Source: Desulfobacterales bacterium (GTDB taxonomy: Bacteria > Desulfobacterota > Desulfobacteria > Desulfobacterales > JAABRJ01). Taken from it: a DNA stretch of 48,260 bases. This document shows positions 10,902 to 48,260 of the stretch, piece by piece. Made by a program: the position numbers and the translations under genes. The stretch's first letter is position 1. Every line of letters begins with the position of its first letter. The stretch covers positions 1 to 48,260 of the forward strand of contig JAWOJK010000134.1 of NCBI GenBank assembly GCA_046481705.1, written 5' to 3'. Under the pieces are notes generated by a model. That model was not told the origin of the DNA. It saw nothing but the letters and a program-made list of their open reading frames with translations, and did not search any database.

Positions 10902-11100
10902 CCTTCGCCACCAGGGCCGTTGCCGGGCGCCCGCGCCCGGTTGTTCGGCAACGGCCATCTTCCGGGTAACTTCCGCGTTTGCCCCCTTCCCGATGCGCCC
11001 CCCCTGCTTGACCCCCAGCGGTTTTTCCGTTATGAAGTTCCGGGTGTTTTTTTGAGCATATTGGAATTGTTAGCGTCGCAAACCGCAATGGGAAACCGCC

Positions 11101-12675: not shown

Positions 12676-12697
12676 CGCCCAGGCGCCGCCCAGCCCC

Positions 12698-12750
12698 AAA
12701 AAAACCCCAAACCCGCAGCACGTCAAGATGTGACAGCGGGTTTGGGGTTT
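12698..12750. terminator. Bidirectional intrinsic terminator between the convergent acyl-CoA ligase gene and dnaK
   Basis: Perfect 15-bp inverted repeat AAACCCCAAACCCGC (12702-12716) / GCGGGTTTGGGGTTT (12736-12750). The flanking A-run gives a U-tract on the dnaK strand. Confidence 0.8.
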
Positions 12751-32260: not shown

Positions 32261-32300
32261 GATCGGCTGACCATCAGCCGCCCAGCAACCCGTTGCGGTC

Positions 32301-32999
32301 ATGATATTCGGCGGTCTGCAGAAAAACTCGTTCATCGACTACCCCGGCAGGATCAGCTGCGTGGTATTTCTATCGGGATGTAACTTTCACTGCCCCTACT
32401 GCCACAACCCCGACCTGGCGCGGGGCAAAGCGGCAGGCCGCGGCGATTTAAGCCTTTCCGGGCTCCTCGACTTTTTGGCGGCGCGCAGAGGGCTGCTGGA
32501 CGCCGTGGTCGTTTCCGGCGGCGAGCCGACCCTGCAACCCGATCTTGCAGGGCTCTGCCGCTGCATCCGGCAAGCCGGCTACCCGGTCAAACTGGACACC
32601 AACGGCAGCAACCCCGATGCCATCCGCCGCCTGCTGGCAGACAACCTCGTGGACTACATCGCCATGGACATCAAAACCGCTCCGGAAGGCTACGTGCCGG
32701 GCCTCGCGACCGACCTCGACCCCGCGCACCTCCGGGCCAGCATCGATCTCATCATGCACTCCGGCCGGCCATACGAGTTCCGCACGACCTGCGTGCAGCC
32801 GTTCGTGGATCCCGCCGTCATCACCGCCATCACCAGCTGCATCGCCGGCGCCGAGCGCTACGTTCTTCAGACATTCCGGCCGGACACGGTCATGGACCCG
32901 GGCTTTTTCAAAGGCCCCCACCGCGGCGCGTCGGCCGCCGAACTGGAAAACTTGCGCCGGCTTGCCGCCCCGCATGTCCGGCAGTGCCTGGTGCGCTGA
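32301..32999 (+). CDS. nrdG: Anaerobic RNR activating enzyme (radical SAM)
   Basis: GCNFHCPYCHN, SGGEP, KLDTNG and YEFRTT. Adjacent to nrdD. Confidence 0.93.
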   Translation: MIFGGLQKNSFIDYPGRISCVVFLSGCNFHCPYCHNPDLARGKAAGRGDLSLSGLLDFLAARRGLLDAVVVSGGEPTLQPDLAGLCRCIRQAGYPVKLDTNGSNPDAIRRLLADNLVDYIAMDIKTAPEGYVPGLATDLDPAHLRASIDLIMHSGRPYEFRTTCVQPFVDPAVITAITSCIAGAERYVLQTFRPDTVMDPGFFKGPHRGASAAELENLRRLAAPHVRQCLVR

Positions 33000-33028: not shown

Positions 33029-34597
33029 ATGCCATCCCTGCCCCCTTCCCCCAAGGACTGGCGGGTCCTCCTGGTCGACGACGAGGAGGGCATCCGCAAG
33101 GTCATGCGCATCACCCTGGAGGATGCCGGCTACCGGGTTGAAACCGCAGCCGACGGCGCTGGCGGCCTGACCCTGTGCGAGAGTTTTGCGCCCCAGATCC
33201 TGATCACCGACATCCGCATGCCCGGCATGGACGGGCTGGAGCTGCTGGCCACCGTCAAGCAGCGTCAGCCGGAGATCGAGGTCATCGTGATGACCGCCTT
33301 CGGCCAAATGGACCTCGCCATCCGTGCCCTGCAGCTGGATGCCTCGGATTTTATCACCAAACCGCTTCATGACGAAGCCCTCTTTCTGGCGCTGCAGCGG
33401 GCACGCGACCGCTTCCGGGCCCGCCAGCAGGTCCAGGACTACACCACCCTGCTGGAGGCGGGCTGGGCCCGCACCGCCCGGGAGCTGATGGACACCTTCG
33501 CCTTTCAGCGGAACCTGATCGACGGCTCCCTGGACGGCATCCTGGGATGTGATCGGAATGACACCGTGGTGATCTTCAACCGCAGCATGGAGCGGATGCT
33601 CGGCTACACCCGGGCGCAGGCGGTCGGCCAAATGGCGCTGACAGGCCTGTTTCACCCCGGAGAAGACGGGCGTTTCAGACGGGCACTGGCATCCGAGAAG
33701 TGGGGCGGCCGCGACCGCCTGGCACTTTTTGAAACCACCCTGATGGCCCAAGACGGCCAGAGCATTCCGGTTCAGGCCTCAGCCGCGGTCTTGCCCCAAC
33801 CGGGCGCCATGGGCGGTCTGGTCTGCTTCTTCAAGGATCTGCGGGAAGTCCGCCGCCTGGAACAGGAGGTGGCCGACCAAGCCCGTATCCTGCACCAGGA
33901 CAAAATGATGTCCCTGGGGCGGCTGGCCGCCAGCGTGGTTCACGAAATCAACAACCCGCTGGCCGGCATTCTCACTTACACCCGGCTGATGCTGCGGATC
34001 CTGGAGCGCGGGCCCCTGGAGCCGTCCCGCCAGGCGGATTTCAGCCGATACCTTGCGCTGGTGGAAAGTGAAACCGACCGTTGCGCCCGGATTGTCGCCA
34101 GCCTGCTGGCGTTTTCACGAAAATCGCCGCCGGCCATGACCGACCTCGCGCTTCGCGACCTTCTCAACCGCTGCGCCTTGATGAGCCACCACAAGCTGGA
34201 ACTGCAGAAGATTCGCCTTGAACTCGTGATCGCCGAGGATCTGCCCCCGGTCCGGGGGGATGCCAACCAGCTGCAGCAGTGCATCATCAACCTGATTTTC
34301 AACGCCATCGACGCCATGCCCGAAGGCGGCAGCCTGCGGCTCGAGGCCGACCGCAGCCCTTGCGGCGGGAAGGTGACCATCACCGTCACGGACACCGGGG
34401 CGGGGATCCCGACCGCGGTTCTGCCCCACATCTTCGAGCCTTTTTTCACCACCAAGGCCGAAGGCTACGGCGTGGGACTGGGCCTCTCGACGGTTTTCGG
34501 CATCATGCAGCGGCATGGAGGCAAGATTACGGCCGAAAACATCGCGGGCAAAGGCGCAGCTTTCACCCTGCATCTGCCCCTGGCGCCCCCTGATTGA
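33029..34597 (+). CDS. Soluble hybrid histidine kinase REC-PAS-HisKA-HATPase
   Basis: REC (LVDDE, TDIRMP, ITKP), PAS (IFNRSMERMLGY), H-box VVHEINNPL, NAIDA, FFTTK and GVGLGL. No TM helix. Confidence 0.92.
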   Translation: MPSLPPSPKDWRVLLVDDEEGIRKVMRITLEDAGYRVETAADGAGGLTLCESFAPQILITDIRMPGMDGLELLATVKQRQPEIEVIVMTAFGQMDLAIRALQLDASDFITKPLHDEALFLALQRARDRFRARQQVQDYTTLLEAGWARTARELMDTFAFQRNLIDGSLDGILGCDRNDTVVIFNRSMERMLGYTRAQAVGQMALTGLFHPGEDGRFRRALASEKWGGRDRLALFETTLMAQDGQSIPVQASAAVLPQPGAMGGLVCFFKDLREVRRLEQEVADQARILHQDKMMSLGRLAASVVHEINNPLAGILTYTRLMLRILERGPLEPSRQADFSRYLALVESETDRCARIVASLLAFSRKSPPAMTDLALRDLLNRCALMSHHKLELQKIRLELVIAEDLPPVRGDANQLQQCIINLIFNAIDAMPEGGSLRLEADRSPCGGKVTITVTDTGAGIPTAVLPHIFEPFFTTKAEGYGVGLGLSTVFGIMQRHGGKITAENIAGKGAAFTLHLPLAPPD

Positions 34598-34647: not shown

Positions 34648-34815
34648 TTAACCGCCTGTCCTAAAATCATTTTTTAGAAAACTCTTCCTTGACCCTCCTA
34701 CCCGTTGCCTCTCGATGCATCATTTTGGCAACAGATCCGCCCCTGGACCTTCCTGCCATCCGCCGTTTCCACCTTTAATATCAAAATACAATTGAATTTC
34801 AGTTGGTTGATTAGA

Positions 34816-34832
34816 GCGGCATGTTTAATGCT
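34816..34832 (+). promoter_or_regulatory. Putative sigma54 -24/-12 promoter of the REC-hdr operon
   Basis: GCGGCATGTTTAATGCT = GG-N10-GC, 50 nt before the GTG start, preceded by an AT-rich IHF-like tract. Confidence 0.6.
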
Positions 34833-34881
34833 TTGTTCTACGATAACCTTCCGTATCGACCGTTTACCCCAGGAGCCCATC

Positions 34882-35301
34882 GTGAGCCAGGCGACCGGCA
34901 GCAAAAAGATCCTGATCGTCGACGATGAAGCCGACATGGTCACCTTCATGGCCACGCTGCTGGCGGCCAACGGGTACACGCCCATCGTCGCCCGTGACCC
35001 GGTCGAAGGCATGGCCAAGGCCCGGCGGCTCAATCCCGACTGCATCATCCTCAACGCCATGATGACCGGGGACGGCGGCATCACCCTGTATGTCAACCTG
35101 AGATGCGACCAGCAGCTGCGGACCGTTCCGGTCATCATGTTGTCCGCCATCGGCAGAAAGATCTTTCTTTTCTACCCCGAGGCCCAGGCGTCGGCCGACG
35201 GTCGGGATCTGCGGGAGCCGGAGTGCTATCTGGAAACCCCTCCTGACGCCGAGGAACTGTTGCGCCAGGTGCAAAAACTGTCCGCCCCGGCGACCGGTTG
35301 A
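34882..35301 (+). CDS. Stand-alone atypical (pseudo) receiver domain protein
   Basis: SD AGGAG then GTG 34882. KILIVDDE is intact, but PDCIILNAMM has Asn for the phospho-Asp and YLETP has Thr for the conserved Lys. Confidence 0.8.
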   Translation: MSQATGSKKILIVDDEADMVTFMATLLAANGYTPIVARDPVEGMAKARRLNPDCIILNAMMTGDGGITLYVNLRCDQQLRTVPVIMLSAIGRKIFLFYPEAQASADGRDLREPECYLETPPDAEELLRQVQKLSAPATG

Positions 35302-35336
35302 AGGTCATCGGCGCCGGCACCAGCAGGGAGAGACCA

Positions 35337-38300
35337 ATGGGCATCAAAATCGGGTTTTACATCTGCCACTGCGGCATCAATATCTCCTACCGGGTCCGGG
35401 TGCAGGAGGTTGCCGATTTTGCCCGCAACCTGAAAAACGTGGTGGTGGCCCGCGACTACAAGTTCATGTGCTCAGACCCCGGCCAGGAAATGATCGAAAA
35501 GGATATACGCGAGTACGGCCTCAACCGGGTGGTGGTGGCCTCCTGTTCGCCGCGGTTCCACGAAAAAACCTTCCGGGCAGCCTGTCAGCGGGCCGGCCTG
35601 AACCCCTACATGTTCCAGATGGCGTCGGTCCGCGAGCAGGTTTCCTGGGTCACCCGGGATCCCGACGAGGCCACCCGCAAGGCCAAGACCCTGGCAGCGG
35701 CGGCCATCAATCGGGTCAATTTCCACGAGGCCCTGGAAACCCGCGAAGTGGCGGTGCACCCCGACCTGCTGGTCGTCGGCGGGGGGATTGCGGGCATGCA
35801 GGCGGCGCTGGACATCGGCAGTGCCGGCCGGAAGGTCTACCTGGTGGAGAAGGACACCACCATCGGGGGCCACATGCTGCAGTTCGACAAAACCTTTCCG
35901 ACCCTCGACTGTGCCGCCTGTATCGGAACCCCCAAGATGGTGGAGGTGGCCCAGAATCCCAACATCGAACTGCTGTCCTACAGTGAGGTGACGGCGGTTT
36001 CGGGCTACATCGGCAACTACACGGTCAGCATCCGACGCAAACCGCGCTACGTCAAGGAGGGGGTCTGCACCGGCTGCGGGGAATGCACCAAGGTCTGCCC
36101 CGTGACGGCCCCCAGCGCCTGGGATCAGGGGCTGAGCCAGCGCAAGGCCATCTACCGGGCCTTTCCCCAGGCGGTGCCGATCGCCTTCTGCATCGACAAG
36201 AAGGACCGCGCGCCCTGCACGACCACCTGCCCGGCCGGCATCAACGTGCAGGGCTACGTCCAGCTGATCGGCCAGGGCAAATACCGCGAGGCCGTCGCGC
36301 TGATCATGGAGCGCCTGCCCCTGCCGGGGGTTCTTGGGCGGGTCTGCCCCCATCCCTGCGAGGCGGCCTGCCGGCGGGCCGAGGTCGACGCCCCCGTGGC
36401 GATCCGCGAACTCAAACGCTTTGCGGCCGACCAGGTCGACCCCGCGCAGCGCCTTAGGCCCGAAATCACCGAACGTCCGGAAAAAATCGCCGTGGTCGGC
36501 GGCGGCCCGGCCGGGTTGACGGCCGCCTACTTTGCGCGCCTCAAGGGGTACCAGGTGACCCTTTTCGAGGCCCTCGACACGCTGGGCGGCATGCTGCGGG
36601 TGGGGATCCCGGACTACCGCCTGCCGCCCGATGTTCTCGACCGCGAGATCGACTACATTCTCAGCCTGGGGGTTAAAACCCGCACCGGCGTCAGGTTGGG
36701 AAGGGATTTCACCCTGGCCGGCCTGCAGCAGGAGGGCTTTGCCGCGATTTTTATCGGCATCGGCTGCCACGCCTCCCTCAAGCTGGGCATCCCGGGCGAG
36801 GAGGGCACCCGCGGGGTAATCGACGCGGTGGCCTTCCTGCGCGGGATCAACCTGGGCGCGGGCATCGCCATTGGCAAACGGGTGGTCGTCGTCGGGGGCG
36901 GCAACGTCGCCATCGACGCCGCCCGCGTGGCGCGGCGGCTCGGCGCCGAAAAGGTGTCCGTGGTCTACCGCCGCTCCGAGGCGGAGATGCCGGCCTACGC
37001 CGAGGAGGTGGCCGGTGCGCTGGCCGAGGGCGTCTGCTTCGAATATCTCACCGCCCCCGTCCGTATCGTCGGCGCCGAGGGCGCCGTTAGCGGCTTCGAA
37101 TGCCTCCGCACCGAACTGGGGCCGCCGGACGCCAGCGGCCGGCGCCGCCCGGTGCCGATCGCCAACTCGGAATTCGAAATTGCCTGCGACACCGTTATCC
37201 CCGCCATCGGCCAACTCACCGAGAGCGCGTGGTCGGCGGCCGAAGCGGGCCCCGCGTGCTCGGCGCGCAACACCATCAAGGTCAGCCCGGTCTCCATGTG
37301 CACCACCCTGCCCCACGTATTTGCCGCGGGAGACGCCGTCACCGGACCGGCCACCGTCATTGAAGCGGTTGCCGGTGCACGCCGGGCGGTGGCGGCCATG
37401 GACCGCTTTATCCGGGGGGAGGCGCTTGACACCGCAGTCACGCCCGCGGTCAAAACGGCGGCCACAACCGCCGGCTGGAATGAAATCCCGGATGACATCC
37501 AAAGCGCTGCACGCCTGCAGCCCACGCATCTGCCGGCTTTGGAGAGCGCCGCTTCCTTTGCCGAGGTAACGCGCGGGGTCAGCGCCGAAGCGGCCCGCCA
37601 GGAGGCCGCACGCTGCCTCAACTGCGGGGTCTGCTCGGAGTGCATGGCATGCGTCAAGGTTTGCGAGGCCCAGGCGATCGACCACCGCATGCAGCCTGAA
37701 ACACTGGAAGTCCAGGTCGGCAGCATCATTCTGGCCACCGGCTACGACACCCTCGACCCGACCCCGATGCATCCCTTTGGCTACGGTCGTTTGCCCAATG
37801 TTTACACCAGTCTCGAATTCGAGCGCCTCAGCAATGCCACCGGCCCCACCGGCGGCAAAATCCTGATCCGCGACGAAAACGGAAGCTTTACCCGGGTGCC
37901 CCGCAGCGCGGCCATCCTCCACTGCATCGGCAGCCGGGATGTCAATTACCACGAATACTGCTCGCGGGTCTGCTGCATGTACGCACTGAAATACACCCAC
38001 CTGCTCAAGGAGAAGGTCGGCCACGACACGCGCGTCTACGATTTTTACATCGACCAGCGCTGCTACGGCAAAGGCTACGAGGAATTCTATCGCCGCTGCC
38101 AAGAAGAAGGCACGATCTTCGTGCGCGGCAGGGTGGCGGAAATAACCGACCAGGCCCAAACACCGACGGAAAAGGGCAAACTGGTGGCAATCGCCGAAGA
38201 CACCCTCCTGGGGCGTCGCATGCGGGTGCCGGTGGACATGGTCATCCTGTGCACGGCCATGGAGGCCCGCGCCGATGCCGCCGAGGTGGGGCGGATTTTC

Positions 38301-38747
38301 GGGGTCAACCAGGGTGCCGACGGCTTCTTCCTGGAGGAGCACCCCAAACTGGCGCCGCTGAACACCGCCACCGACGGCGTTTTCCTGGCCGGCACCTGCC
38401 AGGCCCCACGGGACATCCCCGACACCGTTGCCCAGGCATCCGGGGCGGCGGCCAAGGCCCTGGCGCTCTCCATCCGGGGCCTGGTTGAAATCCCCTCGGC
38501 CATCTCCTGGATCGACCCGGACGTCTGCTCCGGCTGCCAGGTCTGCATCGGGCTGTGCCCTTACGGCGCGATCGAGTTCGACCCGCGCCGCCAGGTCTCG
38601 GTGGTTAACGAGGCCACCTGCAAGGGCTGCGGCAGTTGCGCCGGCTTCTGCCCCAGCAGCGCCGCCCAGATCCGGCACTTCAAGGAGAAACAGATTTTTT
38701 CAGAAATCGACGGGATCATGGACGCCCTCCATGAGGTCGGCGTGTAG
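35337..38747 (+). CDS. hdrA: Large heterodisulfide reductase A (HdrL type) with an inserted GltD/NfnB-like FAD/NAD(P)H module
   Basis: YICHCG, MCS, SCSP, GGGIAG, FPTLDCAAC, SLEFER, CSRVCCMYALK and C-terminal 2x[4Fe-4S]. Insert ~36210-37625 has APC...CPAG, GRVCPHPCE, GGGPAG, GGGNVA and YRR. Confidence 0.93.
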   Translation: MGIKIGFYICHCGINISYRVRVQEVADFARNLKNVVVARDYKFMCSDPGQEMIEKDIREYGLNRVVVASCSPRFHEKTFRAACQRAGLNPYMFQMASVREQVSWVTRDPDEATRKAKTLAAAAINRVNFHEALETREVAVHPDLLVVGGGIAGMQAALDIGSAGRKVYLVEKDTTIGGHMLQFDKTFPTLDCAACIGTPKMVEVAQNPNIELLSYSEVTAVSGYIGNYTVSIRRKPRYVKEGVCTGCGECTKVCPVTAPSAWDQGLSQRKAIYRAFPQAVPIAFCIDKKDRAPCTTTCPAGINVQGYVQLIGQGKYREAVALIMERLPLPGVLGRVCPHPCEAACRRAEVDAPVAIRELKRFAADQVDPAQRLRPEITERPEKIAVVGGGPAGLTAAYFARLKGYQVTLFEALDTLGGMLRVGIPDYRLPPDVLDREIDYILSLGVKTRTGVRLGRDFTLAGLQQEGFAAIFIGIGCHASLKLGIPGEEGTRGVIDAVAFLRGINLGAGIAIGKRVVVVGGGNVAIDAARVARRLGAEKVSVVYRRSEAEMPAYAEEVAGALAEGVCFEYLTAPVRIVGAEGAVSGFECLRTELGPPDASGRRRPVPIANSEFEIACDTVIPAIGQLTESAWSAAEAGPACSARNTIKVSPVSMCTTLPHVFAAGDAVTGPATVIEAVAGARRAVAAMDRFIRGEALDTAVTPAVKTAATTAGWNEIPDDIQSAARLQPTHLPALESAASFAEVTRGVSAEAARQEAARCLNCGVCSECMACVKVCEAQAIDHRMQPETLEVQVGSIILATGYDTLDPTPMHPFGYGRLPNVYTSLEFERLSNATGPTGGKILIRDENGSFTRVPRSAAILHCIGSRDVNYHEYCSRVCCMYALKYTHLLKEKVGHDTRVYDFYIDQRCYGKGYEEFYRRCQEEGTIFVRGRVAEITDQAQTPTEKGKLVAIAEDTLLGRRMRVPVDMVILCTAMEARADAAEVGRIFGVNQGADGFFLEEHPKLAPLNTATDGVFLAGTCQAPRDIPDTVAQASGAAAKALALSIRGLVEIPSAISWIDPDVCSGCQVCIGLCPYGAIEFDPRRQVSVVNEATCKGCGSCAGFCPSSAAQIRHFKEKQIFSEIDGIMDALHEVGV

Positions 38748-38803
38748 CATTTGATCCGCGCTGCCGCACCGATACCCGCCACCCTTTGATGCTGGAGGCA
38801 ACG

Positions 38804-39226
38804 ATGGAAACCTTCGAACCCACCCTGATCGCCTTTGTCTGCAACTGGTGCACCTACACGGCCGCCGACCTGGCCGGCACCTCGCGCCTGAGCTATCCGC
38901 CCAACGTGCGCCTGGTGCGGGTGATGTGCACGGGCATGGTGGACCCCAAATACGTGATCAAGGCGCTGCTGGAAGGGGCCGACGGGGTGTTGATCAGCGG
39001 CTGTCATCCGGGCGACTGCCATTACATCAACGGCAACTTCAAGGCCCGCCGGCGCATCAAGCTCCTCAAGGAGATCCTGCCCCAGTTCGGGTTCGCCCCC
39101 GAACGGCTGAAACTGACCTGGATCGGCGCCAGCGACGGCATCCAGTTTGCCGACACGATCACCCAGCTGGTGGCACGACTCAGGGCCCTGGGCCCCAGCG
39201 AGACCCGCAGCCAGATGGTGATCTGA
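38804..39226 (+). CDS. mvhD: MvhD-type [2Fe-2S] protein
   Basis: FVCNWCTY.AAD, RVMCTG and GCHPGDCHY..GN. SD GGAGG. Confidence 0.95.
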   Translation: METFEPTLIAFVCNWCTYTAADLAGTSRLSYPPNVRLVRVMCTGMVDPKYVIKALLEGADGVLISGCHPGDCHYINGNFKARRRIKLLKEILPQFGFAPERLKLTWIGASDGIQFADTITQLVARLRALGPSETRSQMVI

Positions 39227-39280
39227 GCGCAACCCTTGCAAACAGGGGCCGATCCGCCTGGGCCCCTGCGGAGGACCCCC

Positions 39281-40420
39281 ATGGCAAGCACGCTAAAAAT
39301 CGAGGTGAGCGCCGGTGACATCCTGTCGGCGCTGCAGGCGTTTTTAAAATCGGTGCTCGCGCAGGAGACGATCAGCGCCCTGCTGGTCCCGCAACACCTG
39401 CCCATGAAAGACCGGGTGATGCCGGCCCTGGTGTCGGATCCCGCAAAACTTGCCGCAGCCGACCCGCTGGCACCGGCCTTTCCCCTGAACGCCGCGCGCC
39501 TGGCGGCACGCCTGACCCGCCGCACCGCCGGCGGCCGGATCGCGGCGGTCCTGCGACCGTGCGAAATCCGCGCCCTGGTCGAACTGGTCAAGCTCAAACA
39601 GGCCAGCACCGAAGAACTTCTTCTGATCGGGATCGACTGTCTCGGCGCCTTCACCAACCGCGACTACGCACGCTACACGGCGACAACCGGGGCAGGAGCC
39701 ACGACCGCATTTTACCGCCGCATCCTCTTCGAAGGCCAAAGGCCCGCGGATGACTTCGATCTGGCGCCGGCCTGCCGGGTCTGCGAACACCCCGTCCCCG
39801 AAGGGGCCGATATCCTGATCGGGCTATACGGCGCCACCCCCGGGGGGCCGCTGTGGGCCGAAGCCCAGACCCCGAAAGGGAAAGCGTTCCTCGAACAGCT
39901 CGGGGCAGGGGCCGCGGAGGCCCCCGCCGGGCGTTCAGGGGCCGTTGCCGAACTCATCGCGGCGCGCAGCGCGCGCCGGGACGAAATGTTCGCCGCCACC
40001 CGTGAGCAGACCGACAGCCTGGAAAAACTCAGCGCCTACCTGGCCGCCTGCGTCAACTGCTACAACTGCCGGGTCGCCTGCCCGGTATGCTACTGCCGGG
40101 AGTGCGTTTTCGTCACCGACGTGTTCGACCACGAACCCTTTCAGTACTTGAAGTGGGCCCATCGCAAGGGGGCCGTCAAGATGCCCACCGACACCATTTT
40201 CTTTCACCTGACGCGGCTGGCCCACATCAGCACCGCCTGCGTGGGCTGCGGCCAGTGCTCCAACGCCTGCCCCAACGACATCGCGGTCATGGAACTCTTT
40301 CGCAGCGTGTCCCACCGAACCCAGGCGGCGTTTAAATACGAAGCCGGCCGCAGCCTGGACGAACCGCCCCCGCTGGCGGTGTTCAAAGAGGATGAATTTG
40401 GGGAGGTAACCGGCCTGTAA
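39281..40420 (+). CDS. FdhB/FrhB-family subunit with a C-terminal 4Fe-4S dicluster
   Basis: LRPCEIRALVEL.K..Q, GIDC.G, AC..C, CVNCYNCRVACPVCYC..C, FHLTR..H and CVGCGQCSNACP. Confidence 0.85.
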   Translation: MASTLKIEVSAGDILSALQAFLKSVLAQETISALLVPQHLPMKDRVMPALVSDPAKLAAADPLAPAFPLNAARLAARLTRRTAGGRIAAVLRPCEIRALVELVKLKQASTEELLLIGIDCLGAFTNRDYARYTATTGAGATTAFYRRILFEGQRPADDFDLAPACRVCEHPVPEGADILIGLYGATPGGPLWAEAQTPKGKAFLEQLGAGAAEAPAGRSGAVAELIAARSARRDEMFAATREQTDSLEKLSAYLAACVNCYNCRVACPVCYCRECVFVTDVFDHEPFQYLKWAHRKGAVKMPTDTIFFHLTRLAHISTACVGCGQCSNACPNDIAVMELFRSVSHRTQAAFKYEAGRSLDEPPPLAVFKEDEFGEVTGL

Positions 40421-40484
40421 CCAACCGGCCCTGCCCGCCGCAGCGGCGGCAATGGCCGCGAACACCCATCAACAGAGGCCAGCC

Positions 40485-43400
40485 ATGAAACGAAAAATCG
40501 GCAGCGCAATGGTTGTCGGCGCCGGGATCGCCGGCATCCGGGCGGCCCTGGACCTGGCCGAAAGCGGCTACGGGGTCACCCTGATCGACCGCGCAGCGCA
40601 TATCGGCGGGATTCTGAGTCAACTGGACTACCAGTTCCCCAGCAATGGCTGCGGCATGTGCAAGCTGCTGCCGCTGGTGGCGCGCGATGCCGGCTCCCAG
40701 TATTGCCTGCGCAAGGGGCTTTTCCACGAAAACATCGACATCCTGCTTTCCACCGAAATCGCCGCCATATCAGGCGAGGCCGGCCATTTCGAGGTCACCC
40801 TGCGCCAGTCGCCCAACCCGGTGGACCCGGAGCGCTGCACCGGCTGCGGGGCCTGCACGGCGGTCTGCCCGGTGTCGGTGCCGGATGAATTCAACGCCGG
40901 GCTGACCTTGCGCAAGGCCATCTACCTGCCCGTGCCGCATGCCATTCCCAACCCTTTCAGGATCGACCCGGCCGCCTGCACCCGCTGCGGCGCATGTGTC
41001 GCGGCCTGCCCCAACGGCGCCATCCAGCTGGCGGATAGCGGTCGGGAAGGCTTCCGCGTGCTGGTGGTCGATGACGAGCTGATCGTGCGGGATTCCATCC
41101 ACGCCTGGCTCACGGACGAAGGCTACACGGTGGAGATGGCCGCCGGCGGCCGGGAGGCCCTGAAGCGACTGACCGAGCAGCGGTTTCAGCTGATGCTGCT
41201 GGATATCAAAATGCCCGGCATGGATGGGGTCGAAGTCCTCCAAAAAGCCCGCGAAATGCAACCGGACCTGTGCGTCGTGATGATGACCGCCTACGCCACG
41301 GTCGAAACCGCCATCGAAGCGATGAAGGCCGGCGCGCGCGAATACCTGCTCAAACCCTTTGAGCCCGACACGCTGAGCGCTCAGGTGGCCCGCATCTACC
41401 ATGAGACCGAGCTGGCCGAAGCCCGGCGGGTTGAAACCGGCGCGTTGATTCTCTGCGGGGGGACCGATTATTACAACCCGGCCGAGGGCAAAAACCCGTT
41501 TGCCTACCGGCAAAGCCCGCATGTGCTGACCAGCTTGGAATTCGAACGGATCTTGAGCGGCACCGGCCCCAGCGGCGGACGGCTGGTGCGCCCGGCGGAC
41601 GGCAAAGCGGTCGGCAAGGTGGCCTGGATCCAGTGCGTGGGGTCCCGCGATCTTCAGAGCGGAGCGGACTTCTGTTCCACCGTCTGCTGCATGTATGCCA
41701 TCAAGGAGGCCCTCCTGGCCCGGGAAAAAACCGCTACGGACCTTGAAACGACGATCTTCTACATGGACCTGCGCACCCCCGGAAAGTCTTTTCAGCGCTA
41801 CCGCGACCGGGCGGAGCAGGAAGGCGGCGTAAAGTTCGAACGGGGTCGGATCCACTCCGTGGTCCCCGACCCGGCCACCGGCGACCCCGTGCTGGCGTAT
41901 GTGCCCCACGACGGCGGCCGCCGCGAGGAATGTTTTGACCTGGTGGTGCTCGCCGTTGGCCAGCGGCCCGCGGCCGGTGCCGCCCAACTGGCCGAAATCG
42001 CCGGGATCGAACTGAACCCCTGGGGGTTTGCCCGCAGCGCCCCGTTTTCTCTGACCCGCAGCAGCCGCGAGGGCATTTTCCTGGGCGGCGCCTTTGCCGG
42101 TCTGCAGGACATCTCCGATTCAGTGATCCGGGCCAGTTCGGCCGCTTTGGGCGCTTCACGGGTGCTGCACGCCGGCGGCGGCAGCCTGGGCGCCGCCCCA
42201 TCGCCGGCCGCGACGCTGCGGGACGTCAGCCGCGAGACGCCCCGGGTCGGGGTGATTTTCTGCACGTGCGGCGAGAGCGTCCCGCTGACCACGGCCCTGG
42301 CCGCTGACCTGCAGCAGGACCCGGCGGTGGCGTGGGTCAGCGCCCTTGAAAAAACCTGCACCGCCGAGGGCTGGGAGGCCATGACGGACCTGGTGAAGGC
42401 CCGGGACGTAAACCGCCTGCTGATCGCCGCTTGCCGCCCCTATGTTTACGCCCGCAAACTGCGCGAACTGAGTGCGGCGGTCGGGCTCGAACCGGCCCTG
42501 ATGACGGTGGTGGACATCCGCAGCCTGTCGCCGACGACCGCCCCGCCTCCCGCGGAGGTGGCGCGGGTCGTGGCGATGGGGGTCGCAGCGCTGAAAAAGG
42601 TCGCACCGGGGCCGGTGCCCAGCGTTGCAGTGGTCCAGGAGGCCCTGGTGGTGGGCGGCGGGATTGCCGGCATGACCGCAGCCCTGAGCATTGCCGACCA
42701 CGGGTACCCGGTAAGGCTGGTGGAGCAGGCCGAATCCCTGGGCGGCAACCTCAACTGGCTGACCTCCACCTTGGACAACCAAAACCCCCGGGCCCTGCTG
42801 ACCGAAACCGTGACCCGGGTGGGAAAGCACCCGCGCATCACGGTCCACACCAGCAGCCGGGTGGCCGGGGCCTTCGGCGAGGTCGGCCATTTTTTCACCA
42901 CCATCGAGGGACCCGACGGACGAACCACCAGCCTGGAGCACGGAACGGTGATCCTCGCCACCGGCGGCAGCGAGGCGGCCACCACGGCCTACGGCTACGG
43001 GACCAGCGAAGCCGTATTGACCCTCAAGGCGCTGGAAACCCGCCTGGCCAGCACGGCCATCGATCCGGCCGAGCTGACGGCCGTCGTCATGATCCAGTGC
43101 GTCGAGTGCCGCGAGGAGCCCCGCAACTACTGCAGCCAGGTCTGCTGCCCCTCGGCCCTCAAACACGCCCTCGCGCTCAAAAAGGGCAACCCGGATATCG
43201 CGGTTTATGTGTTGTACCGCGACATGATGAGCTGCGGCTTCAACGAAACCTACTACACCCGGGCGCGTCAGGCCGGAATTCTGTTTTTCCCGTATAGCCT
43301 GCAGCGCAAACCCAAGGTGAGGATCGACGCCGAAACCGGACCGCTGGTGACCGTCTTCGAACCGGTGCTCGGGCGCGAAGTCGCCATTGCGGCCGACCTC

Positions 43401-43892
43401 GTGGTGTTGGCGACCGGCATCGTGCCCCATCTGCCCGAAGCGCTGGTCGACGCATTTGGCATCGTCCGCGACCGGGACGGATTTTTCCAGGAAGCCGAAT
43501 CCAAGTGGCGGCCGGTGGATGCCGTCAAGGAGGGGGTTTTTGCCTGCGGCCTGGTGCGCGCGCCCCACGGCATTCCGGAAGTCATTGCCGAGGCGGAAGC
43601 CGCGGCCCAGCGTGCGCTCAGAATTCTGGGGCGCAAACGCCTGCCGGCCGGGAAGGTGGTGGCGGAGGTGCGCCTCAGCCTCTGCAGCCGCTGTGAGCGC
43701 TGCCTCGACGCCTGCCCTTACGGCGCCCGGTGCCTCAACCCGGAGCTGGACAGAATCTTCATCAACCCGGCCATGTGCCAGGGCTGCGGGGCCTGCGCCG
43801 CGGTTTGCCCCAACAGTGCGGCGATTGTGGCGGGATTTACGGACGGTCAGATGCTGGCGGTGATCGACGCCGCCCTGGAAGGAGTATCGTGA
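40485..43892 (+). CDS. hdrA: Double-module HdrA-like flavoprotein with an internal response-regulator receiver domain
   Basis: Module 1: GAGIAG, FPSNGCGMC, 2x[4Fe-4S] insert, REC at 41052-41405, SLEFER, CSTVCCMYAIK. Module 2: FCTCG, GGGIAG, CSQVCC..ALK, C-terminal 2x[4Fe-4S]. Alternative start at 40452. Confidence 0.92.
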   Translation: MKRKIGSAMVVGAGIAGIRAALDLAESGYGVTLIDRAAHIGGILSQLDYQFPSNGCGMCKLLPLVARDAGSQYCLRKGLFHENIDILLSTEIAAISGEAGHFEVTLRQSPNPVDPERCTGCGACTAVCPVSVPDEFNAGLTLRKAIYLPVPHAIPNPFRIDPAACTRCGACVAACPNGAIQLADSGREGFRVLVVDDELIVRDSIHAWLTDEGYTVEMAAGGREALKRLTEQRFQLMLLDIKMPGMDGVEVLQKAREMQPDLCVVMMTAYATVETAIEAMKAGAREYLLKPFEPDTLSAQVARIYHETELAEARRVETGALILCGGTDYYNPAEGKNPFAYRQSPHVLTSLEFERILSGTGPSGGRLVRPADGKAVGKVAWIQCVGSRDLQSGADFCSTVCCMYAIKEALLAREKTATDLETTIFYMDLRTPGKSFQRYRDRAEQEGGVKFERGRIHSVVPDPATGDPVLAYVPHDGGRREECFDLVVLAVGQRPAAGAAQLAEIAGIELNPWGFARSAPFSLTRSSREGIFLGGAFAGLQDISDSVIRASSAALGASRVLHAGGGSLGAAPSPAATLRDVSRETPRVGVIFCTCGESVPLTTALAADLQQDPAVAWVSALEKTCTAEGWEAMTDLVKARDVNRLLIAACRPYVYARKLRELSAAVGLEPALMTVVDIRSLSPTTAPPPAEVARVVAMGVAALKKVAPGPVPSVAVVQEALVVGGGIAGMTAALSIADHGYPVRLVEQAESLGGNLNWLTSTLDNQNPRALLTETVTRVGKHPRITVHTSSRVAGAFGEVGHFFTTIEGPDGRTTSLEHGTVILATGGSEAATTAYGYGTSEAVLTLKALETRLASTAIDPAELTAVVMIQCVECREEPRNYCSQVCCPSALKHALALKKGNPDIAVYVLYRDMMSCGFNETYYTRARQAGILFFPYSLQRKPKVRIDAETGPLVTVFEPVLGREVAIAADLVVLATGIVPHLPEALVDAFGIVRDRDGFFQEAESKWRPVDAVKEGVFACGLVRAPHGIPEVIAEAEAAAQRALRILGRKRLPAGKVVAEVRLSLCSRCERCLDACPYGARCLNPELDRIFINPAMCQGCGACAAVCPNSAAIVAGFTDGQMLAVIDAALEGVS

Positions 43893-43952
43893 CGACCGGC
43901 TGCGCATCCCTGCTTCCAGCCCTTTTGAATGCCGACGGCAGAAGGAGTTCAC

Positions 43953-44528
43953 ATGAAAGCCAGCGCCACCGCAACCCGTCCGGGTGAAACCGCCAGCGTT
44001 CGCGAACCGCTGACGGACATCCGCCAAATGGTCAGCGCCTGCATCCAGTGCGGCACCTGCACCGGCTCGTGCCCCAACGCGCATGCCATGGACCACACCC
44101 CCCGCCAGCTCTGGCGAATGGTGCTGATGGAGGAGCAGGACCTGATTTTTGAGAGCAAAACCTTCGCCCTCTGCTCGGCCTGTTATACCTGCAGCCTGCG
44201 GTGTCCCCGGGGTCTGCCGCTGACCGAAGCCATGGCGGCCCTCAAACAGGCCGCCGCCCGCGCGAACGTCCCGGCCTTCCGGCCAAGCGCCCGATTCTAT
44301 CGCAGCTTCCTCGAAAGCGTGCGCCGCCATGGACGGGTGCGTGAAAGCGAATTCATGACGCTTTACTTCCTGGCCATGAAAAACCCGCTGCTGCCGCTGA
44401 AGTTTGCACCGCTGGGCTTCAAGCTGATGGGCAAGGGCAAGCTGCAGGTGGCCCTGCCGACCGGCTCCGGCCGGGGGGCCCTGGATGCCATCTTTGACAA
44501 AGTCGCTGAACTGGAGGGCCGGTCATGA
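43953..44528 (+). CDS. hdrC: Heterodisulfide reductase subunit C
   Basis: CIQCGTCTGSCP and CSACYTCSLRCPRG, F..SV..HGR..E. SD AAGGAG. Confidence 0.9.
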   Translation: MKASATATRPGETASVREPLTDIRQMVSACIQCGTCTGSCPNAHAMDHTPRQLWRMVLMEEQDLIFESKTFALCSACYTCSLRCPRGLPLTEAMAALKQAAARANVPAFRPSARFYRSFLESVRRHGRVRESEFMTLYFLAMKNPLLPLKFAPLGFKLMGKGKLQVALPTGSGRGALDAIFDKVAELEGRS

Positions 44529-45394
44529 AGTATCTCTACTACCCGGGGTGTTCCCTGGAGGCCAGCGCCAGCGAGTACGACCGCTCCAGCCGCGCCTTCC
44601 TGACGGCCATGGGGGCTGAGATTACGGAACTGGCGGATTGGAACTGCTGCGGGGCCAGCGCCGCCGAGGCCCAAAGCCGGCTGCTAGCCCTGGCCCTGCC
44701 CGCGCGCAACCTCGCAATAGCCGAAAGGATGGGGGTTGCCCGCGACCTTCTGGTGCCCTGCAGCGCCTGCTATCTGAACCTCAGGAAGGTGGCGGAAAAA
44801 ATCCGGCGCGAGCCGGACCTGCTGGCGGAACTCAATACGGTCCTGAGCGCCGATGGGCTGCAGCTGAGCGGCGGGGTCCGGGTTCGGCACCTGCTGGACG
44901 TGGTGGCCACCGACCTGGGGGCCCAAGCGCTGCGCGCCAAGGTTAGCCGCCCGCTGAAGGGGCTGACGATCGCGCCCTACTACGGCTGCCAGTGCCTGCG
45001 GCCCTACAAGGTATTTGACGACCCCGAAGCGCCGCAGACCATGTCCCCCCTGATCGAGGCCGCGGGGGCCGCCGTGCACCCCTGGCAGATGGGCGCGCGC
45101 TGCTGCAGCGCCTCGCTGATGACCACCAAACCGGAGGTCGGGGTGGTGCTGGTGGCCGACATCCTCACGGCCGCGCGCGGGGCGGACGCCATCGCAACCG
45201 TCTGTCCCATGTGCCAGATGAACCTCGAGGCTTTCCAGGCCAAAGCTTCCCGTTTTGCCGGTGAAAACCTCGCCATTTCGGTGCTCTACCTGCCTCAGCT
45301 GCTGGGGCTGGCCATGGGCCTTTCGGAGTCGGAGCTCGGGCTGGGGTTCAACCTGGCGCTGACGGCAGGGTTACGGAATAAGCTGGCCGCTTGA
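44525..45394 (+). CDS. hdrB: Heterodisulfide reductase subunit B (two CCG domains)
   Basis: YYPGC, WNCCG, CSAC, YYGC, RCCS and CPMC..NL. ATGA overlap with hdrC. Confidence 0.93.
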   Translation: MKYLYYPGCSLEASASEYDRSSRAFLTAMGAEITELADWNCCGASAAEAQSRLLALALPARNLAIAERMGVARDLLVPCSACYLNLRKVAEKIRREPDLLAELNTVLSADGLQLSGGVRVRHLLDVVATDLGAQALRAKVSRPLKGLTIAPYYGCQCLRPYKVFDDPEAPQTMSPLIEAAGAAVHPWQMGARCCSASLMTTKPEVGVVLVADILTAARGADAIATVCPMCQMNLEAFQAKASRFAGENLAISVLYLPQLLGLAMGLSESELGLGFNLALTAGLRNKLAA

Positions 45395-45430: not shown

Positions 45431-47002
45431 TCACGCCGCCTGATTTTCAGAGGTGTTTTTTTGGGGCTCTGGCGGCTCGCCGCCGACGGCGGGCAGGCGC
45501 ACGGTGAAACAGGAACCCTCCCCCGGTGCGGATGCCACCGTGATCTCGCCCCCGTGCTGGTGGACGATTTTAGCGGCCACAAAAAGACCCAGGCCGGTCC
45601 CCTTGTCGGCTTTGGAGGAGGCGAAGAGCGTGAAAATCCCGGCGCGGGTGTCGGCATCCATGCCGATACCGTTGTCCTCGACTTCGAACACAACCTGCTG
45701 AGGCTCCCGACGGACCCGGAACACCACGCGGTGCTCGGTTTTTTGACGGTCCTCGATGCAGGCGTCCACGGCATTTTCCAGGATATTGACCAGAGCGGCC
45801 TGGACCTGGCCGGCATCCAACTCGAAACGCCCCAAACCGGGCGCGAGCTCCTGCACGAAGCGGATGCCGTGGCGCTTCATTTTTGGGGTGATCAGGCCGG
45901 TGAGCTCCTCGGCAAATACCGCCAGATCCACCGGCGTAGGCACCACCGCCCGTTCCTTGGCCTGGTAGAGAATATCGAGCACCATCCCCCGGATGCGCCC
46001 CACCATGAGCTTGACCACCTCCCAGCCCTCCTGGACCTGCGCCTGATCTTCGTGCGCAAAACCGGCATCGATCAGGTACATGCCGCCGTCCAGCCCCGTC
46101 AACAGCCCCTTGATGGCATGCGAGACCGAACCGATCATCAATCCCAGTGAGGCGAGGTGATCCTGCAGCTGGCTCAGCTGGGTGATGTTGGTGGCCATCA
46201 CCAGCACGTGGGTGATATCCCCATGCGCATCGCGCACGGGGGTGGTCCACACCAGGGTGTTGAAGGACGCGCCGGTTTGGGTTTTGAAAACCATTTCCGT
46301 CTGCTGGGGGCAGCCGCTGTGGAAAGTTTTATCGGCGGGGCAGTCCTCACAGGGCGCCGCGACCTGTTTGCAGAGTTCATAACAGCAGGATTCGCCGGGC
46401 TCCCCGAAATCCTGCCTGAAGAGCCTGTTGGCGGCCGTGAGGTGATACTGACGATCCCGCACGGTGATGTAACACGGCATATCGTCGAAGAGTTTCTGGT
46501 AGCGGGAAGGATCCGGCGCTGGTTGCGCGCCTGAAGCTTTTGACGCAGAGGGCTTGGCGACCGCCTGGAGCCGCGCCGTCTTTTCATGCACCAAGGTTTC
46601 CAGGTTTTCGGTGTACTCTTTTAACTTGCGGCGAATGAGAATGTTCTCGCGGGCTTTCTGGAGGGATTTTTCAAGGGCGTCATCGCTGATCGGCTTGGTG
46701 ACGAAATCGGTGGCGTCGTATTGCAGGCTTTTGATGGCGAGTTCCATGTCACCGTGGCCGGTGATCATGATGACCTCGGTTTCGGGGTTCTGCTGCTTGA
46801 TGCGCCGCAGCAAGGTGATGCCATCCATGCCGGGCATCTTGATGTCGGTGAGCACGATGTCCGGTTGCTCACTTTCAAAAATGCGCAGGGCCTCCTCCCC
46901 GTTTTCGGCGGTCAAAACGGTGTAGCCGCTGTCTGCCAGCGAAATGCCGAGGACCTTGCGGATACCTTCCTCGTCATCTACCAGAAGCAGTTTGGATTTC
47001 AT
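45431..47002 (-). CDS. Soluble hybrid histidine kinase REC-PAS(Cys-rich)-HisKA-HATPase
   Basis: REC (LVDDE, TDIKMP, VTKP), PAS with CCYELC...PCEDCP, H-box SHAIKG, NAVDAC, DNGIG and GTGLGL. Confidence 0.9.
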   Translation of the reverse strand: MKSKLLLVDDEEGIRKVLGISLADSGYTVLTAENGEEALRIFESEQPDIVLTDIKMPGMDGITLLRRIKQQNPETEVIMITGHGDMELAIKSLQYDATDFVTKPISDDALEKSLQKARENILIRRKLKEYTENLETLVHEKTARLQAVAKPSASKASGAQPAPDPSRYQKLFDDMPCYITVRDRQYHLTAANRLFRQDFGEPGESCCYELCKQVAAPCEDCPADKTFHSGCPQQTEMVFKTQTGASFNTLVWTTPVRDAHGDITHVLVMATNITQLSQLQDHLASLGLMIGSVSHAIKGLLTGLDGGMYLIDAGFAHEDQAQVQEGWEVVKLMVGRIRGMVLDILYQAKERAVVPTPVDLAVFAEELTGLITPKMKRHGIRFVQELAPGLGRFELDAGQVQAALVNILENAVDACIEDRQKTEHRVVFRVRREPQQVVFEVEDNGIGMDADTRAGIFTLFASSKADKGTGLGLFVAAKIVHQHGGEITVASAPGEGSCFTVRLPAVGGEPPEPQKNTSENQAA

Positions 47003-47021
47003 GGCTCGTGACGGCTGCGGG

Positions 47022-47381
47022 TCAGTCCGGCAACCCGATGGCGCGCTGCACGGTCAGCAGCAGCTTGTCGGGGTCAAACGGTTTGCTGATGTAGGCCACC
47101 GCCTTCTTGATGGCATGCCGCCCGGCCATACCGCTGATCACGATGACGGGAATATCCTGCAGCTCGGGGTCCTTGGTCATCCGGCGGTAAAAGTGCGGAC
47201 CCCACTCCTCGGGCATTTCCAGGTCCAGGGTGATCAGGTCGGGTTTTTCGCGTTTGACCACATCCAACGCCGCCACGCCGGTGGTGGCGCTGCAGGTGGT
47301 GTAACCGTTGTCCTCGAGCAGCGCGGTAAGGTATTTCACGATAATGGGGTCGTCATCGATGATCAGGATTTTCTTTGCCAT
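47022..47381 (-). CDS. Single-domain response regulator of the tmc-associated type (resembles Desulfovibrio DVU0259, from recall)
   Basis: MAKKILIIDDD, PDLITLDLEMPEEWGP.FYR, VISG and SKPFDP. Directly downstream of tmcA. Confidence 0.88.
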   Translation of the reverse strand: MAKKILIIDDDPIIVKYLTALLEDNGYTTCSATTGVAALDVVKREKPDLITLDLEMPEEWGPHFYRRMTKDPELQDIPVIVISGMAGRHAIKKAVAYISKPFDPDKLLLTVQRAIGLPD

Positions 47382-47487
47382 GCGGTGACCTCTTTTTGGG
47401 CGAATCGGTTGGGGCCTGCAGGAAAATCGGGAGGACACACCCAAGGCCGGACCGCCCGGATGTGCCCGTTAGTTCCATGCAGGCCAC

Positions 47488-47880
47488 TTAATTCCGAGGG
47501 TGGCACTCGGCACACATCACCGGACCGGCCAGCTGTTCCCGATGACAGCCCCCACAGCGCAAATGGTAGGCCACAATCAGCGCGATCGGTTCGGCGCCGC
47601 TGGCGGCCAGGTGGCATTCCGAGCACTCCTGGTCCTCGGAGGTTTCGTCGGCCAGCAGCTGGCCATCCTCCACGACATGATGGCAGACGTTGCACTCATC
47701 GATGCCGGCCTTTTCATTGTGGTCGTCGTGCAGGAAGGGCACCGGCGGCCGCATCCGGTTACCGAAGGCGCTGTCCCTCACGGTGGTCACGTCCTCCTGG
47801 GAGTATACGGCCGATCCGGCTGCCAGCGCCAGGGCCGCCAACACAAGAAGCGCAAAGGCCATCAAAGCGCGGTTTTTCAT
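47488..47880 (-). CDS. tmcA: Acidic tetraheme (type II) cytochrome c3
   Basis: Signal peptide, F.HDDHNEKA and four heme motifs (CNVCHH, CSECH, CGGCH, CAECH). Acidic composition; follows a TmcB-like gene. Confidence 0.85.
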   Translation of the reverse strand: MKNRALMAFALLVLAALALAAGSAVYSQEDVTTVRDSAFGNRMRPPVPFLHDDHNEKAGIDECNVCHHVVEDGQLLADETSEDQECSECHLAASGAEPIALIVAYHLRCGGCHREQLAGPVMCAECHPRN

Positions 47881-47948
47881 CAGGTCACCCCCTTTTCTTG
47901 CTTCGGCTGCAGCAAACCACAGCGGCCGGGAAGGGCCGCCCGGGGGCC

Positions 47949-48221
47949 CTATTCGGGTTTCTCCATGGTTTCGTAGATCAGGTCTCCGAGAAATTTGAGT
48001 TCCAGGCCCAGTTGATTGACATGGATGATATCATCCAGCCCGCCGTGGCAGTTGTGGCAAGGGGCGATCACCGTCTTGACGCCCTTGGTCTTGACCCGGA
48101 AGAGCTGCTCGGCCTTGACGCGATTGCCGGCAACACGTTTGTTCTTGAAGGGCGGGCCGGTGTTGATCACCCCGCCACCGGCGCTGCAGCAGTAGTTGTG
48201 CTCCCGGTTGGGGTGCATTTC
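47949..48221 (-). CDS. tmcB: C-terminal fragment of a TmcB/HmcF-type CCG-domain Fe-S protein (5' part missing)
   Basis: EMHPNREHNYCCSAGGG...APCHNC. Similarity stops near 48221 and an in-frame TAG lies at 48240-48242. Confidence 0.75.
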   Translation of the reverse strand, partial: EMHPNREHNYCCSAGGGVINTGPPFKNKRVAGNRVKAEQLFRVKTKGVKTVIAPCHNCHGGLDDIIHVNQLGLELKFLGDLIYETMEKPE

Positions 48222-48260
48222 AGTCCTGGCTGTGCGCGTCTACCAGTGGTGCGATGGAAC

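Follow-up and report, generated by a model that had tools for sequence, protein, structure and literature searches.

A receiver domain inserted into a fused HdrA-like protein of Desulfobacterales: a candidate phospho-switch on an Hdr complex

A 48,260-nt stretch of DNA from a Desulfobacterales bacterium (GCA_046481705.1, contig JAWOJK010000134.1, forward strand; the window in what follows) carries an operon for a putative heterodisulfide reductase (Hdr) complex, and in one of its genes a complete CheY-like receiver domain (REC) lies inside an HdrA-like protein (P0001; Table 1). The operon runs hdrL-mvhD-fdhB-like-hdrA(REC)-hdrC-hdrB, with genes for REC-PAS-kinases on both flanks. Translated, positions 40485-43892 form a single frame without interruption; the ATG at 40485 matches the start of the homologue consensus, and a second in-frame ATG lies upstream, at 40452. 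The frame passes from ferredoxin-type sequence through the receiver and back into HdrA: CTRCGACVAACPNGAIQLADSGREGF / RVLVVDDE...LLDIKMPGMDG...MMTAYAT...LLKPF... / ...VETGALILCGG.

Table 1. Coordinates of the receiver-HdrA gene, its domains and the surrounding operon within the window
Feature	Position	Strand	Details
Fused HdrA-like gene with inserted receiver (P0001)	40485..43892	+	1135 aa
Module 1, first half of FAD/thioredoxin-reductase-like domain	40485..40814	+	residues 1-110; GxGxxG 12-17; C56/C59
Inserted ferredoxin domain	40815..41042	+	residues 111-186; two CxxCxxCxxxCP: C118/121/124/128, C165/168/171/175
Receiver (REC, CheY-like)	41052..41405	+	residues 190-307; Pfam 192-301 = 41058-41387
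Receiver codons	D196 41070-41072; D197 41073-41075; D240 (acceptor) 41202-41204; T268 41286-41288; K290 41352-41354	+
Module 1, second half of flavin domain	41421..42179	+	residues 313-565; aligns with HdrA 317-514; CVGSRD...CSxxCC (C384, C397, C401, C402)
Module 2, HdrA N-terminal-domain-like	42234..42629	+	residues 584-715; C593, C595, C625, C650; aligns with HdrA 2-~140
Module 2, flavin domain	42630..43649	+	residues 716-1055; own GxGxxG; Cys pair absent at the Cys197 position; no inserted ferredoxin domain
Module 2, C-terminal ferredoxin domain	43650..43889	+	residues 1056-1135; two 4-Cys motifs
HK1, REC-PAS-HisKA-HATPase kinase	33029..34597	+
Small CheY-like ORF	34705..35301	+	stop overlaps hdrL start; acceptor position N, Lys position T
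HdrL-like, HdrA with NfnB/GltD-like NAD(P)H module	35298..38747	+	module between HdrA ~291 and ~300
MvhD/FlpD-like subunit	38786..39226	+
FrhB/FdhB-like flavo-iron-sulfur subunit	39236..40420	+
HdrC-like subunit (4Fe-4S dicluster)	43929..44528	+
HdrB-like subunit (two CCG domains)	44525..45394	+
HK2, REC-PAS-(H-box)-HATPase kinase	45431..47002	-	Cys-rich motif in PAS region
FAD, flavin adenine dinucleotide; ORF, open reading frame.

Residues 192-301 fit Pfam Response_reg (PF00072) along profile positions 1-110 of 111; the match scores 109 bits, where the gathering cutoff is 30.2, and has E 1.9e-31. D196, D197, D240, T268 and K290 are all present, as is Y287 at the aromatic switch position; the roles of acidic pair, acceptor Asp, Thr/Ser, aromatic switch and Lys are those of the corresponding positions in CheY. 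An AlphaFold2 model of the 1135-aa protein, built on a 140-sequence alignment, has a mean predicted local distance difference test (pLDDT) of 90.4 and a predicted template modelling score (pTM) of 0.89. DSSP run on this model assigns a (βα)5 fold, five strands alternating with five helices, to residues 191-309, a block with pLDDT mostly 79-95: β1 191-195, α1 199-211, β2 215-219, α2 222-231, β3 236-240, α3 248-258, β4 263-268, α4 273-281, β5 286-289 and α5 294-309. In the chain, β1 begins about 15 residues after the last ferredoxin cluster motif (C165-x2-C168-x2-C171-x3-C175-P), and the last helix (294-309) runs directly into the flavin-domain strand 312-318. Its nearest relatives by sequence are receivers of the NtrC/AtoC/ZraR type. 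By every sequence and fold criterion tried, the inserted domain is a member of the receiver family; phosphorylation itself is predicted.

What kind of protein hosts the receiver? Placement by phmmer against PDB sequences, with Methanothermococcus HdrA (5odc_A, 654 aa) as the reference, breaks P0001 into four pieces: residues 7-181 correspond to HdrA 145-309 (the first half of the flavin domain and the inserted ferredoxin domain), 314-512 to 317-514 (the second half of the flavin domain), 584-755 to 2-181 (the N-terminal domain and the beginning of a second flavin domain) and 950-1120 to 465-639 (the end of that flavin domain and the ferredoxin domain at the C terminus). Because of this four-piece alignment, the host is read as a fusion of two HdrA-like modules. 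Module 1 holds a flavin domain, the sole inserted ferredoxin domain (residues 113-181, aligned to HdrA 241-309) and C56/C59, which align with Cys194/Cys197 of 5odc HdrA, and it has neither an N-terminal domain nor a ferredoxin domain at the C terminus. The receiver takes the place of a 7-residue linker, HdrA 310-316, through which the chain returns from the inserted ferredoxin domain to the flavin domain. G12, G14, G17, C56 and C59 are invariant in 140 sequences; among the cluster cysteines, C118, C128, C165, C168, C171, C175, C384, C397, C401 and C402 are likewise invariant, and C121 and C124 are conserved in at least 90%. The N-terminal domain lies in module 2 and the Cys197 equivalent in module 1, which is the arrangement that marks a fused heterodimeric HdrA (PMC9012536). 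Pfam Pyr_redox_2/NAD_binding_8 is matched twice, and Foldseek places the model on methanogen HdrA (8rvy_A, 5odc_A and 7bkd_A; E 5.5e-44 to 1e-41, target-normalised TM 0.53-0.92). The protein does not reach the NCBIfam equivalog cutoffs for HdrA or HdrA2 (models NF041778 and NF040770; scores of 483.8 vs 1400 and 655.9 vs 1100). To judge from these comparisons, the host is a member of the HdrA superfamily, as an HdrA-like paralogue and not as a methanogen HdrA equivalog.

A preliminary description, drawn from the letters of the window, had reported a full CheY-like domain at 41052-41405 within an electron-bifurcating HdrA. The domain, its residue numbers (D196/D197/D240/T268/K290), the intactness of all catalytic positions and its place, right after the inserted ferredoxin domain and ahead of resumed HdrA sequence, all hold in the profile, model and phmmer comparisons. 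The host was less well described: it does belong to the HdrA superfamily, but it is two fused HdrA-like modules and no simple HdrA, and “electron-bifurcating” overstated what homology and the sub-cutoff scores allow.

Could the architecture be an artefact of assembly or gene calling, with a chimeric contig or two genes taken as one? The source metagenome-assembled genome (MAG; 3.9 Mb, 98.5% complete) is fragmented into 397 contigs, and beyond this no support for an artefact was found. The frame is continuous, and Logan contigs from three other studies bridge both junctions with no indels: a 2029-nt DNA contig (X4) spans 40485-42277 with 27 differences, a 1734-nt contig from an RNA library (X16) spans 40485-42207 with 31, and an 11232-nt contig from another RNA library (X15) covers the entire gene with 105. 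No transcription is claimed from X15 and X16, because these are contigs only and RNA libraries can contain DNA. Failure of reads to span the junctions had been named in the preliminary description as grounds for abandoning the idea; contigs of all three studies cross them. More than 100 independent database proteins and at least 29 named genomes have the same architecture. With junction-spanning contigs and this recurrence in hand, the artefact is rejected, its probability being negligible.

How widespread is a receiver within HdrA? A word-indexed protein search with query residues 100-430 returned 7902 significant homologues among 8000 scored candidates; in the best 120 of these 7902, proteins of 941-1177 aa, PF00072 is always present and the query region is covered to 100% with 64-98% identity. 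Their automatic labels include “response regulator”, “FAD-dependent oxidoreductase” and “heterodisulfide reductase subunit A”. An exhaustive search of 50%-identity representatives found that about 29 of the best 150 bridge at least one junction and that 13 span the whole 326-residue query; the next matches after the REC-bearing representatives are tandem HdrAs of about 1000-1030 aa without a receiver. In an even sample of the phylum, a full-length match (E <= 1e-60) occurs in 10 of 400 other genomes; 9 of 340 high-quality genomes carry one, the window's own counted, and the matches fall in at least eight families. Among named species genomes, at least 31 loci have the architecture, under labels that include Desulfobacterales, Desulfobacteraceae, Desulfosarcinaceae, Desulfococcaceae, Desulfobacula, Desulfosalsimonas and Syntrophobacterales, and three MAGs labelled Desulfocurvus, Desulfohalobiaceae and Desulfovibrionaceae have the architecture at 40-44% identity over the query region. 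A REC-bearing homologue from the cultured Desulfonema magnum (P0096) lies outside the 80 loci kept. The window genome has one copy, and in its other HdrA paralogues the ferredoxin motif leads straight into the flavin domain. The search that the preliminary description had called for thus finds the architecture recurring across genomes, with the insertion site fixed in all members; as a common family that automatic annotation already labels, receiver-HdrA is not as singular as that description held.

The receiver is conserved along with its host. D196, D197, D240, T268, Y287 and K290 are invariant in the query and its best 120 homologues (121 of 121). Alignment A1, made up of 105 of the 120 homologues with 8 further REC-bearing and 26 REC-less representatives picked by hand, contains 114 REC-bearing sequences, in which D196 and D240 are each kept in 114 and D197, T268 and K290 each in 113, so that the D/D/T/K alignment proposed at the outset has been made and the four positions stand. 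Over 29 of the 31 named-genome loci (all except L044 and L046), 26 keep all six residues. Mean column conservation is 0.85 in the receiver vs 0.75-0.87 in the catalytic parts of HdrA. In 42 sequences filtered to less than 75% identity, conservation concentrates in β1, the β3-loop and β4-α4-β5, and α2 and α5 are variable. The receiver active site and the β4-α4-β5 region are, on the evidence of these alignments, under strong purifying selection.

How was the receiver acquired? REC-less sisters of about 1000 aa run straight from the ferredoxin motif to the flavin strand; they align without any other indel, and the receiver is therefore a clean insertion of about 123 residues. A quick FastTree (LG+gamma) phylogeny of A1, computed with the REC columns removed and given an arbitrary root at the most distant REC-less sequence, places 113 of the 114 REC-bearing sequences in one clade with support 0.93. 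REC-less P0151 is nested within this clade, and REC-bearing P0019 falls outside it on a long branch. The clade, with P0151 nested inside, points to an essentially single origin of the insertion and to what is probably one secondary loss of the receiver, in P0151.

The genes around hdrA(REC) are conserved as well. Context was compared at 26 of the 31 REC-bearing loci: L021, L034 and L039 were omitted because their contigs reach at most 4.6 kb, and L044 and L046 because their matches are truncated. An FdhB-like gene lies directly 5' of hdrA(REC) in 26 of 26; mvhD is present in 24, both exceptions starting at a contig edge; an HdrL-like ORF occurs in 23 and is full length in 17. In L020, hdrL and hdrA(REC) appear to be split into several ORFs, either by frameshifts of the long-read-assembly kind or as pseudogenes. 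The hdrC and hdrB genes follow directly 3' in 20 loci. In the remaining six (L019, L020, L024, L027, L031 and L040) they are not downstream, and an HdrC-like ORF lies upstream of hdrL, of 610-774 aa in five loci and a 199-aa fragment in L020. In L019, the sole one of the six scanned with Pfam, this ORF is a fused Fer4 and 2xCCG protein, HdrD-like; the arrangement resembles a substitute disulfide-reductase module serving the same core. HdrL itself carries an insertion: its complete NfnB/GltD-like NAD(P)H-flavin module (residues ~304-785) sits inside the inserted ferredoxin domain, has NfnABC, NfnI and DPD as its best PDB relatives and lies within about 20 HdrA positions of the receiver insertion point in its paralogue. 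Because HdrL and HdrA(REC) of one operon carry different modules there, the spot appears to tolerate functional modules.

Kinase genes, noted as neighbours in the preliminary description, recur elsewhere: kinase-like ORFs stand in the flanks of 24 of the 26 loci, typically directly after hdrB as a pair, which in L026, where it was scanned, consists of a ~770-aa HAMP-PAS-HisKA-HATPase sensor and a REC-HATPase protein. The small CheY-like ORF accompanies the operon in 13 of the 26; its acceptor is Asp in 8 of the 13 orthologues and Asn in this genome. These orthologues share a conserved C-terminal extension, and the window copy is a pseudo-receiver. In HK2 (P0272), residues ~205-221 of the PAS region form a Cys-rich motif, CC-x3-C-x6-C-x2-C, perhaps a site for a metal, for Fe-S or for redox sensing; it is a candidate input of the system.

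Which way would a signal travel at such a locus? Possibly the Hdr complex does the sensing, and its state, redox or conformational, sets the gain or loss of phosphate by the receiver; the protein would then serve as a redox-dependent phosphate sink or as a relay input alongside the neighbouring REC-PAS-kinases and the small CheY-like protein. Receivers abound at the locus: REC opens each of the two window kinases, and in 13 of 26 loci the operon is headed by a single-domain CheY-like ORF, a layout typical of branched relays. No DNA-binding regulator adjoins the operon within the window, and the Cys-rich PAS region of HK2 could itself sense redox state. Yet a sink needs no specific insertion point, and the site is fixed in all members; the enzyme part, moreover, is by far the larger, conserved and “output-like” portion of the protein. 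Such reverse flow is, on these grounds, unlikely.

How does the protein compare with known Hdr systems? In methanogen complexes, low-potential electrons leave the bifurcating FAD through the inserted ferredoxin domain towards ferredoxin or polyferredoxin, and gating by conformation inside HdrA has been described or proposed, according to the relevant passages of two papers (PMC9012536, PMC13518236); the premise of the preliminary description, that this domain is the proposed low-potential exit, agrees with them. P0001 resembles HdrA of the HdrABC-MvhAGD and Fdh-Hdr complexes (5odc, 7bkb, 8rvu) in its flavin/thioredoxin-reductase-like fold and differs in having two complementary modules in one chain and a receiver (~123 aa) at the 310-316 position. 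CoM-S-S-CoB would not be its substrate, because the host genome is bacterial and of sulfate-reducer type. The closer parallel is with fused or tandem HdrAs of anaerobic methanotrophic archaea (ANME) and of Moorella MetFV-HdrABC-MvhD, which Chadwick et al. (2022) read as internal heterodimers (PMC9012536, passages on HdrA): the complementary loss of the N-terminal domain and of the Cys197 equivalent is shared, the module order of P0001 is reversed relative to ANME HdrA3/4, and those passages mention no receiver. They also report a large NfnB-like module that splits the inserted ferredoxin domain, much as in HdrL here (PMC9012536).

Two sulfate-reducer systems can also be compared in gene content. 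Locus VIII of Desulfobacterium autotrophicum HRM2 is listed in a figure legend (Fig. 4) as tandem hdrL/hdrA, mvhD, a formate-dehydrogenase-B-like gene, hdrA4 and hdrB/hdrC homologues, and the figure key names a “response regulator”, a “histidine kinase” and a “CheY-like regulator” nearby; the accompanying text, as far as it concerns this locus, does not state that a receiver lies within HdrA4 (PMC2702500). FlxABCD-HdrABC of Desulfovibrio vulgaris (Ramos et al. 2015) is NAD(P)H-linked, has an MvhD-like subunit and is proposed to reduce ferredoxin and DsrC, as summarised in the pertinent section of PMC6491731; the operon here has analogous parts (an NfnB-like module in HdrL, MvhD, an FdhB-like subunit and HdrABC), whereas the subunit composition of FlxABCD-HdrABC is different and that section describes no receiver. 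No receiver inside HdrA is described in the Hdr passages of PMC2702500, PMC5109826, PMC4046663, PMC13685792 or PMC6491731, and the 11 HdrA domain architectures given in the corresponding part of a 2024 preprint (bioRxiv 10.1101/2024.09.26.615249) include none with a receiver. The statement in the preliminary description that no characterised example is known accords with this: full-text searches of the open literature found no description of a receiver inside HdrA or of a redox or bifurcating receiver output.

Receiver-HdrA also has to be set against response regulators with enzymatic outputs. In these, among them the CheB methylesterase, the PleD and WspR cyclases and RpfG, the receiver is terminal and joined to the enzyme by a linker. 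The likeness lies in a canonical D-D-D-T-K receiver that is covalently joined to an enzyme and has kinases encoded nearby; unlike in CheB/PleD types, the receiver here is embedded in the fold of a redox enzyme with several cofactors, where an electron-transfer arm has its base. To our knowledge, no redox or bifurcating enzyme figures among the described outputs of response regulators. By analogy with these proteins, receiver-HdrA, which is real, conserved and experimentally tractable, may work like a response regulator with an enzymatic output.

What could phosphorylation of such a domain do? We lean slightly towards the view that the receiver is a phospho-switch on the low-potential branch or on the assembly of the Hdr complex. 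In this scheme, (i) a neighbouring kinase would phosphorylate D240; (ii) the T268/Y287 switch would remodel the α4-β5 face; and (iii) the change in the receiver would reposition or immobilise the ferredoxin arm, or alter the oligomeric or partner state of the complex. Since both ends of the receiver are anchored, β1 to the ferredoxin domain and α5 to the flavin strand, either the arm or the assembly state would be expected to change. By these changes, an NAD(P)H/ferredoxin/disulfide (probably DsrC-type) Hdr complex would have its ferredoxin branch switched on or off post-translationally. The narrower proposal, that phosphorylation directly gates the ferredoxin branch of a bifurcating or confurcating complex and so switches it, within seconds and with no new gene expression, between coupled and uncoupled or idle states, in response to a kinase signal that is possibly redox or substrate sensed via the PAS domains, is tentative and somewhat doubtful. 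A complex prediction of the receiver (186-312) with the two halves of module 1 (1-185 and 313-580), each taken from A1, gave no interface (score 0.00, mark 0.32, controls not folded) and speaks neither for nor against docking.

Several observations weigh against a phospho-switch. Electron bifurcation by the host is predicted from homology only, its scores for NCBIfam HdrA and HdrA2 falling short of the cutoffs. Outside the receiver, only five scattered positions are conserved specifically in REC-bearing proteins (L88, Q391, G566, W758 and N881); they form no patch, and so give no sign of a co-evolved docking surface. Helix α5 of the receiver is poorly conserved. The two window kinases are REC-PAS-kinases, one of them on the opposite strand, and not the HAMP kinase typical of the relatives. 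Last, there is a branch with degenerate receivers: in L042, L043, L047, G041 (L018) and P0139 the inserted fold is kept and the acidic pair and Thr, mostly also Lys, are lost, and in L043 the acceptor Asp has gone as well. The first three are 45-47% identical to P0001 over the full protein and come from MAGs with Desulfovibrionales-type labels; with G041 (L018) included, identities are 40-47%. In this branch the receiver domain presumably has a phosphorylation-independent, structural role too, and because of it and of P0151 the scaffold would seem to work without phosphorylation and even without the domain. The preliminary description had held that degenerate receivers in homologues would undo its proposal; they exist, in a minority branch, and the main lineage is intact. 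In L042, L043 and L047, the upstream “HdrL” ORF is just ~680-720 aa long and matches about one third of the window HdrL.

Is the receiver fold then mainly a structural or docking module, a platform for partners or a spacer that orients the arm, with at most a small part for phosphorylation and with its acidic pocket kept for metal binding or stability? The destroyed active sites in 3 of 29 named loci, G041 and P0139 speak for this, as does the small CheY-like ORF of the same operon, which in this genome has no acceptor Asp. However, six residues that stay invariant in the main lineage at 52-70% overall identity are hard to explain without phosphoryl chemistry, and kinase genes are retained in the operon, which leaves a mainly structural role unlikely. 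A lineage with a dead receiver would in any case serve as a natural control that separates a structural from a phospho-dependent role.

A variant of the phospho-switch places its effect on assembly: the phosphorylated receiver would dimerise via α4-β5-α5, in the manner of NtrC or OmpR, and thereby make or dissolve an Hdr super-complex. The closest receiver relatives are of the NtrC/AtoC/ZraR type, α4 and β5 are the most conserved surface elements, and methanogen Hdr complexes act as dimers and super-assemblies, according to the structural passages of PMC9012536 and PMC13518236. Against this, α5 is variable, and dimerisation is not needed for the core because the fused protein holds both HdrA halves; the variant taken by itself is quite unlikely.

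Why would a switch on an Hdr complex matter? Flavin-based electron bifurcation sets the energy economy of anaerobes near the thermodynamic limit, and a phospho-switch in HdrA would bear on how cells prevent futile or reverse flow through bifurcating enzymes. The architecture is a hint that kinase signals may reach an energy-coupling enzyme directly. If true, a bifurcating enzyme would for the first time be known to contain a switch under signal control, with the receiver as an intramolecular hinge and not a terminal domain; two-component signalling would gain a multi-cofactor redox enzyme as an output class and, as a topology, a receiver placed inside the output fold. A receiver in the hinge of the ferredoxin arm is a concrete, testable handle, and Desulfonema magnum is a cultured carrier.

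Further genes lie elsewhere in the window. Directly upstream of HK1 (30131-32999, +) are the genes for NrdD, an anaerobic ribonucleotide reductase that has an ATP-cone, and for NrdG, which is its activase; among the 26 related loci, no match to NrdD/NrdG was found next to the hdr operon. No Pfam family matches, at the thresholds applied, either of two long ORFs, at 46944-48260 (+; 438+ aa, open-ended) and 10813-12726 (-; 637 aa). At 6882-10125 (-), 25 kb from the hdr operon, a PAS-HisKA-HATPase kinase is encoded together with an NtrC-type sigma-54 activator (REC-AAA-HTH_8).

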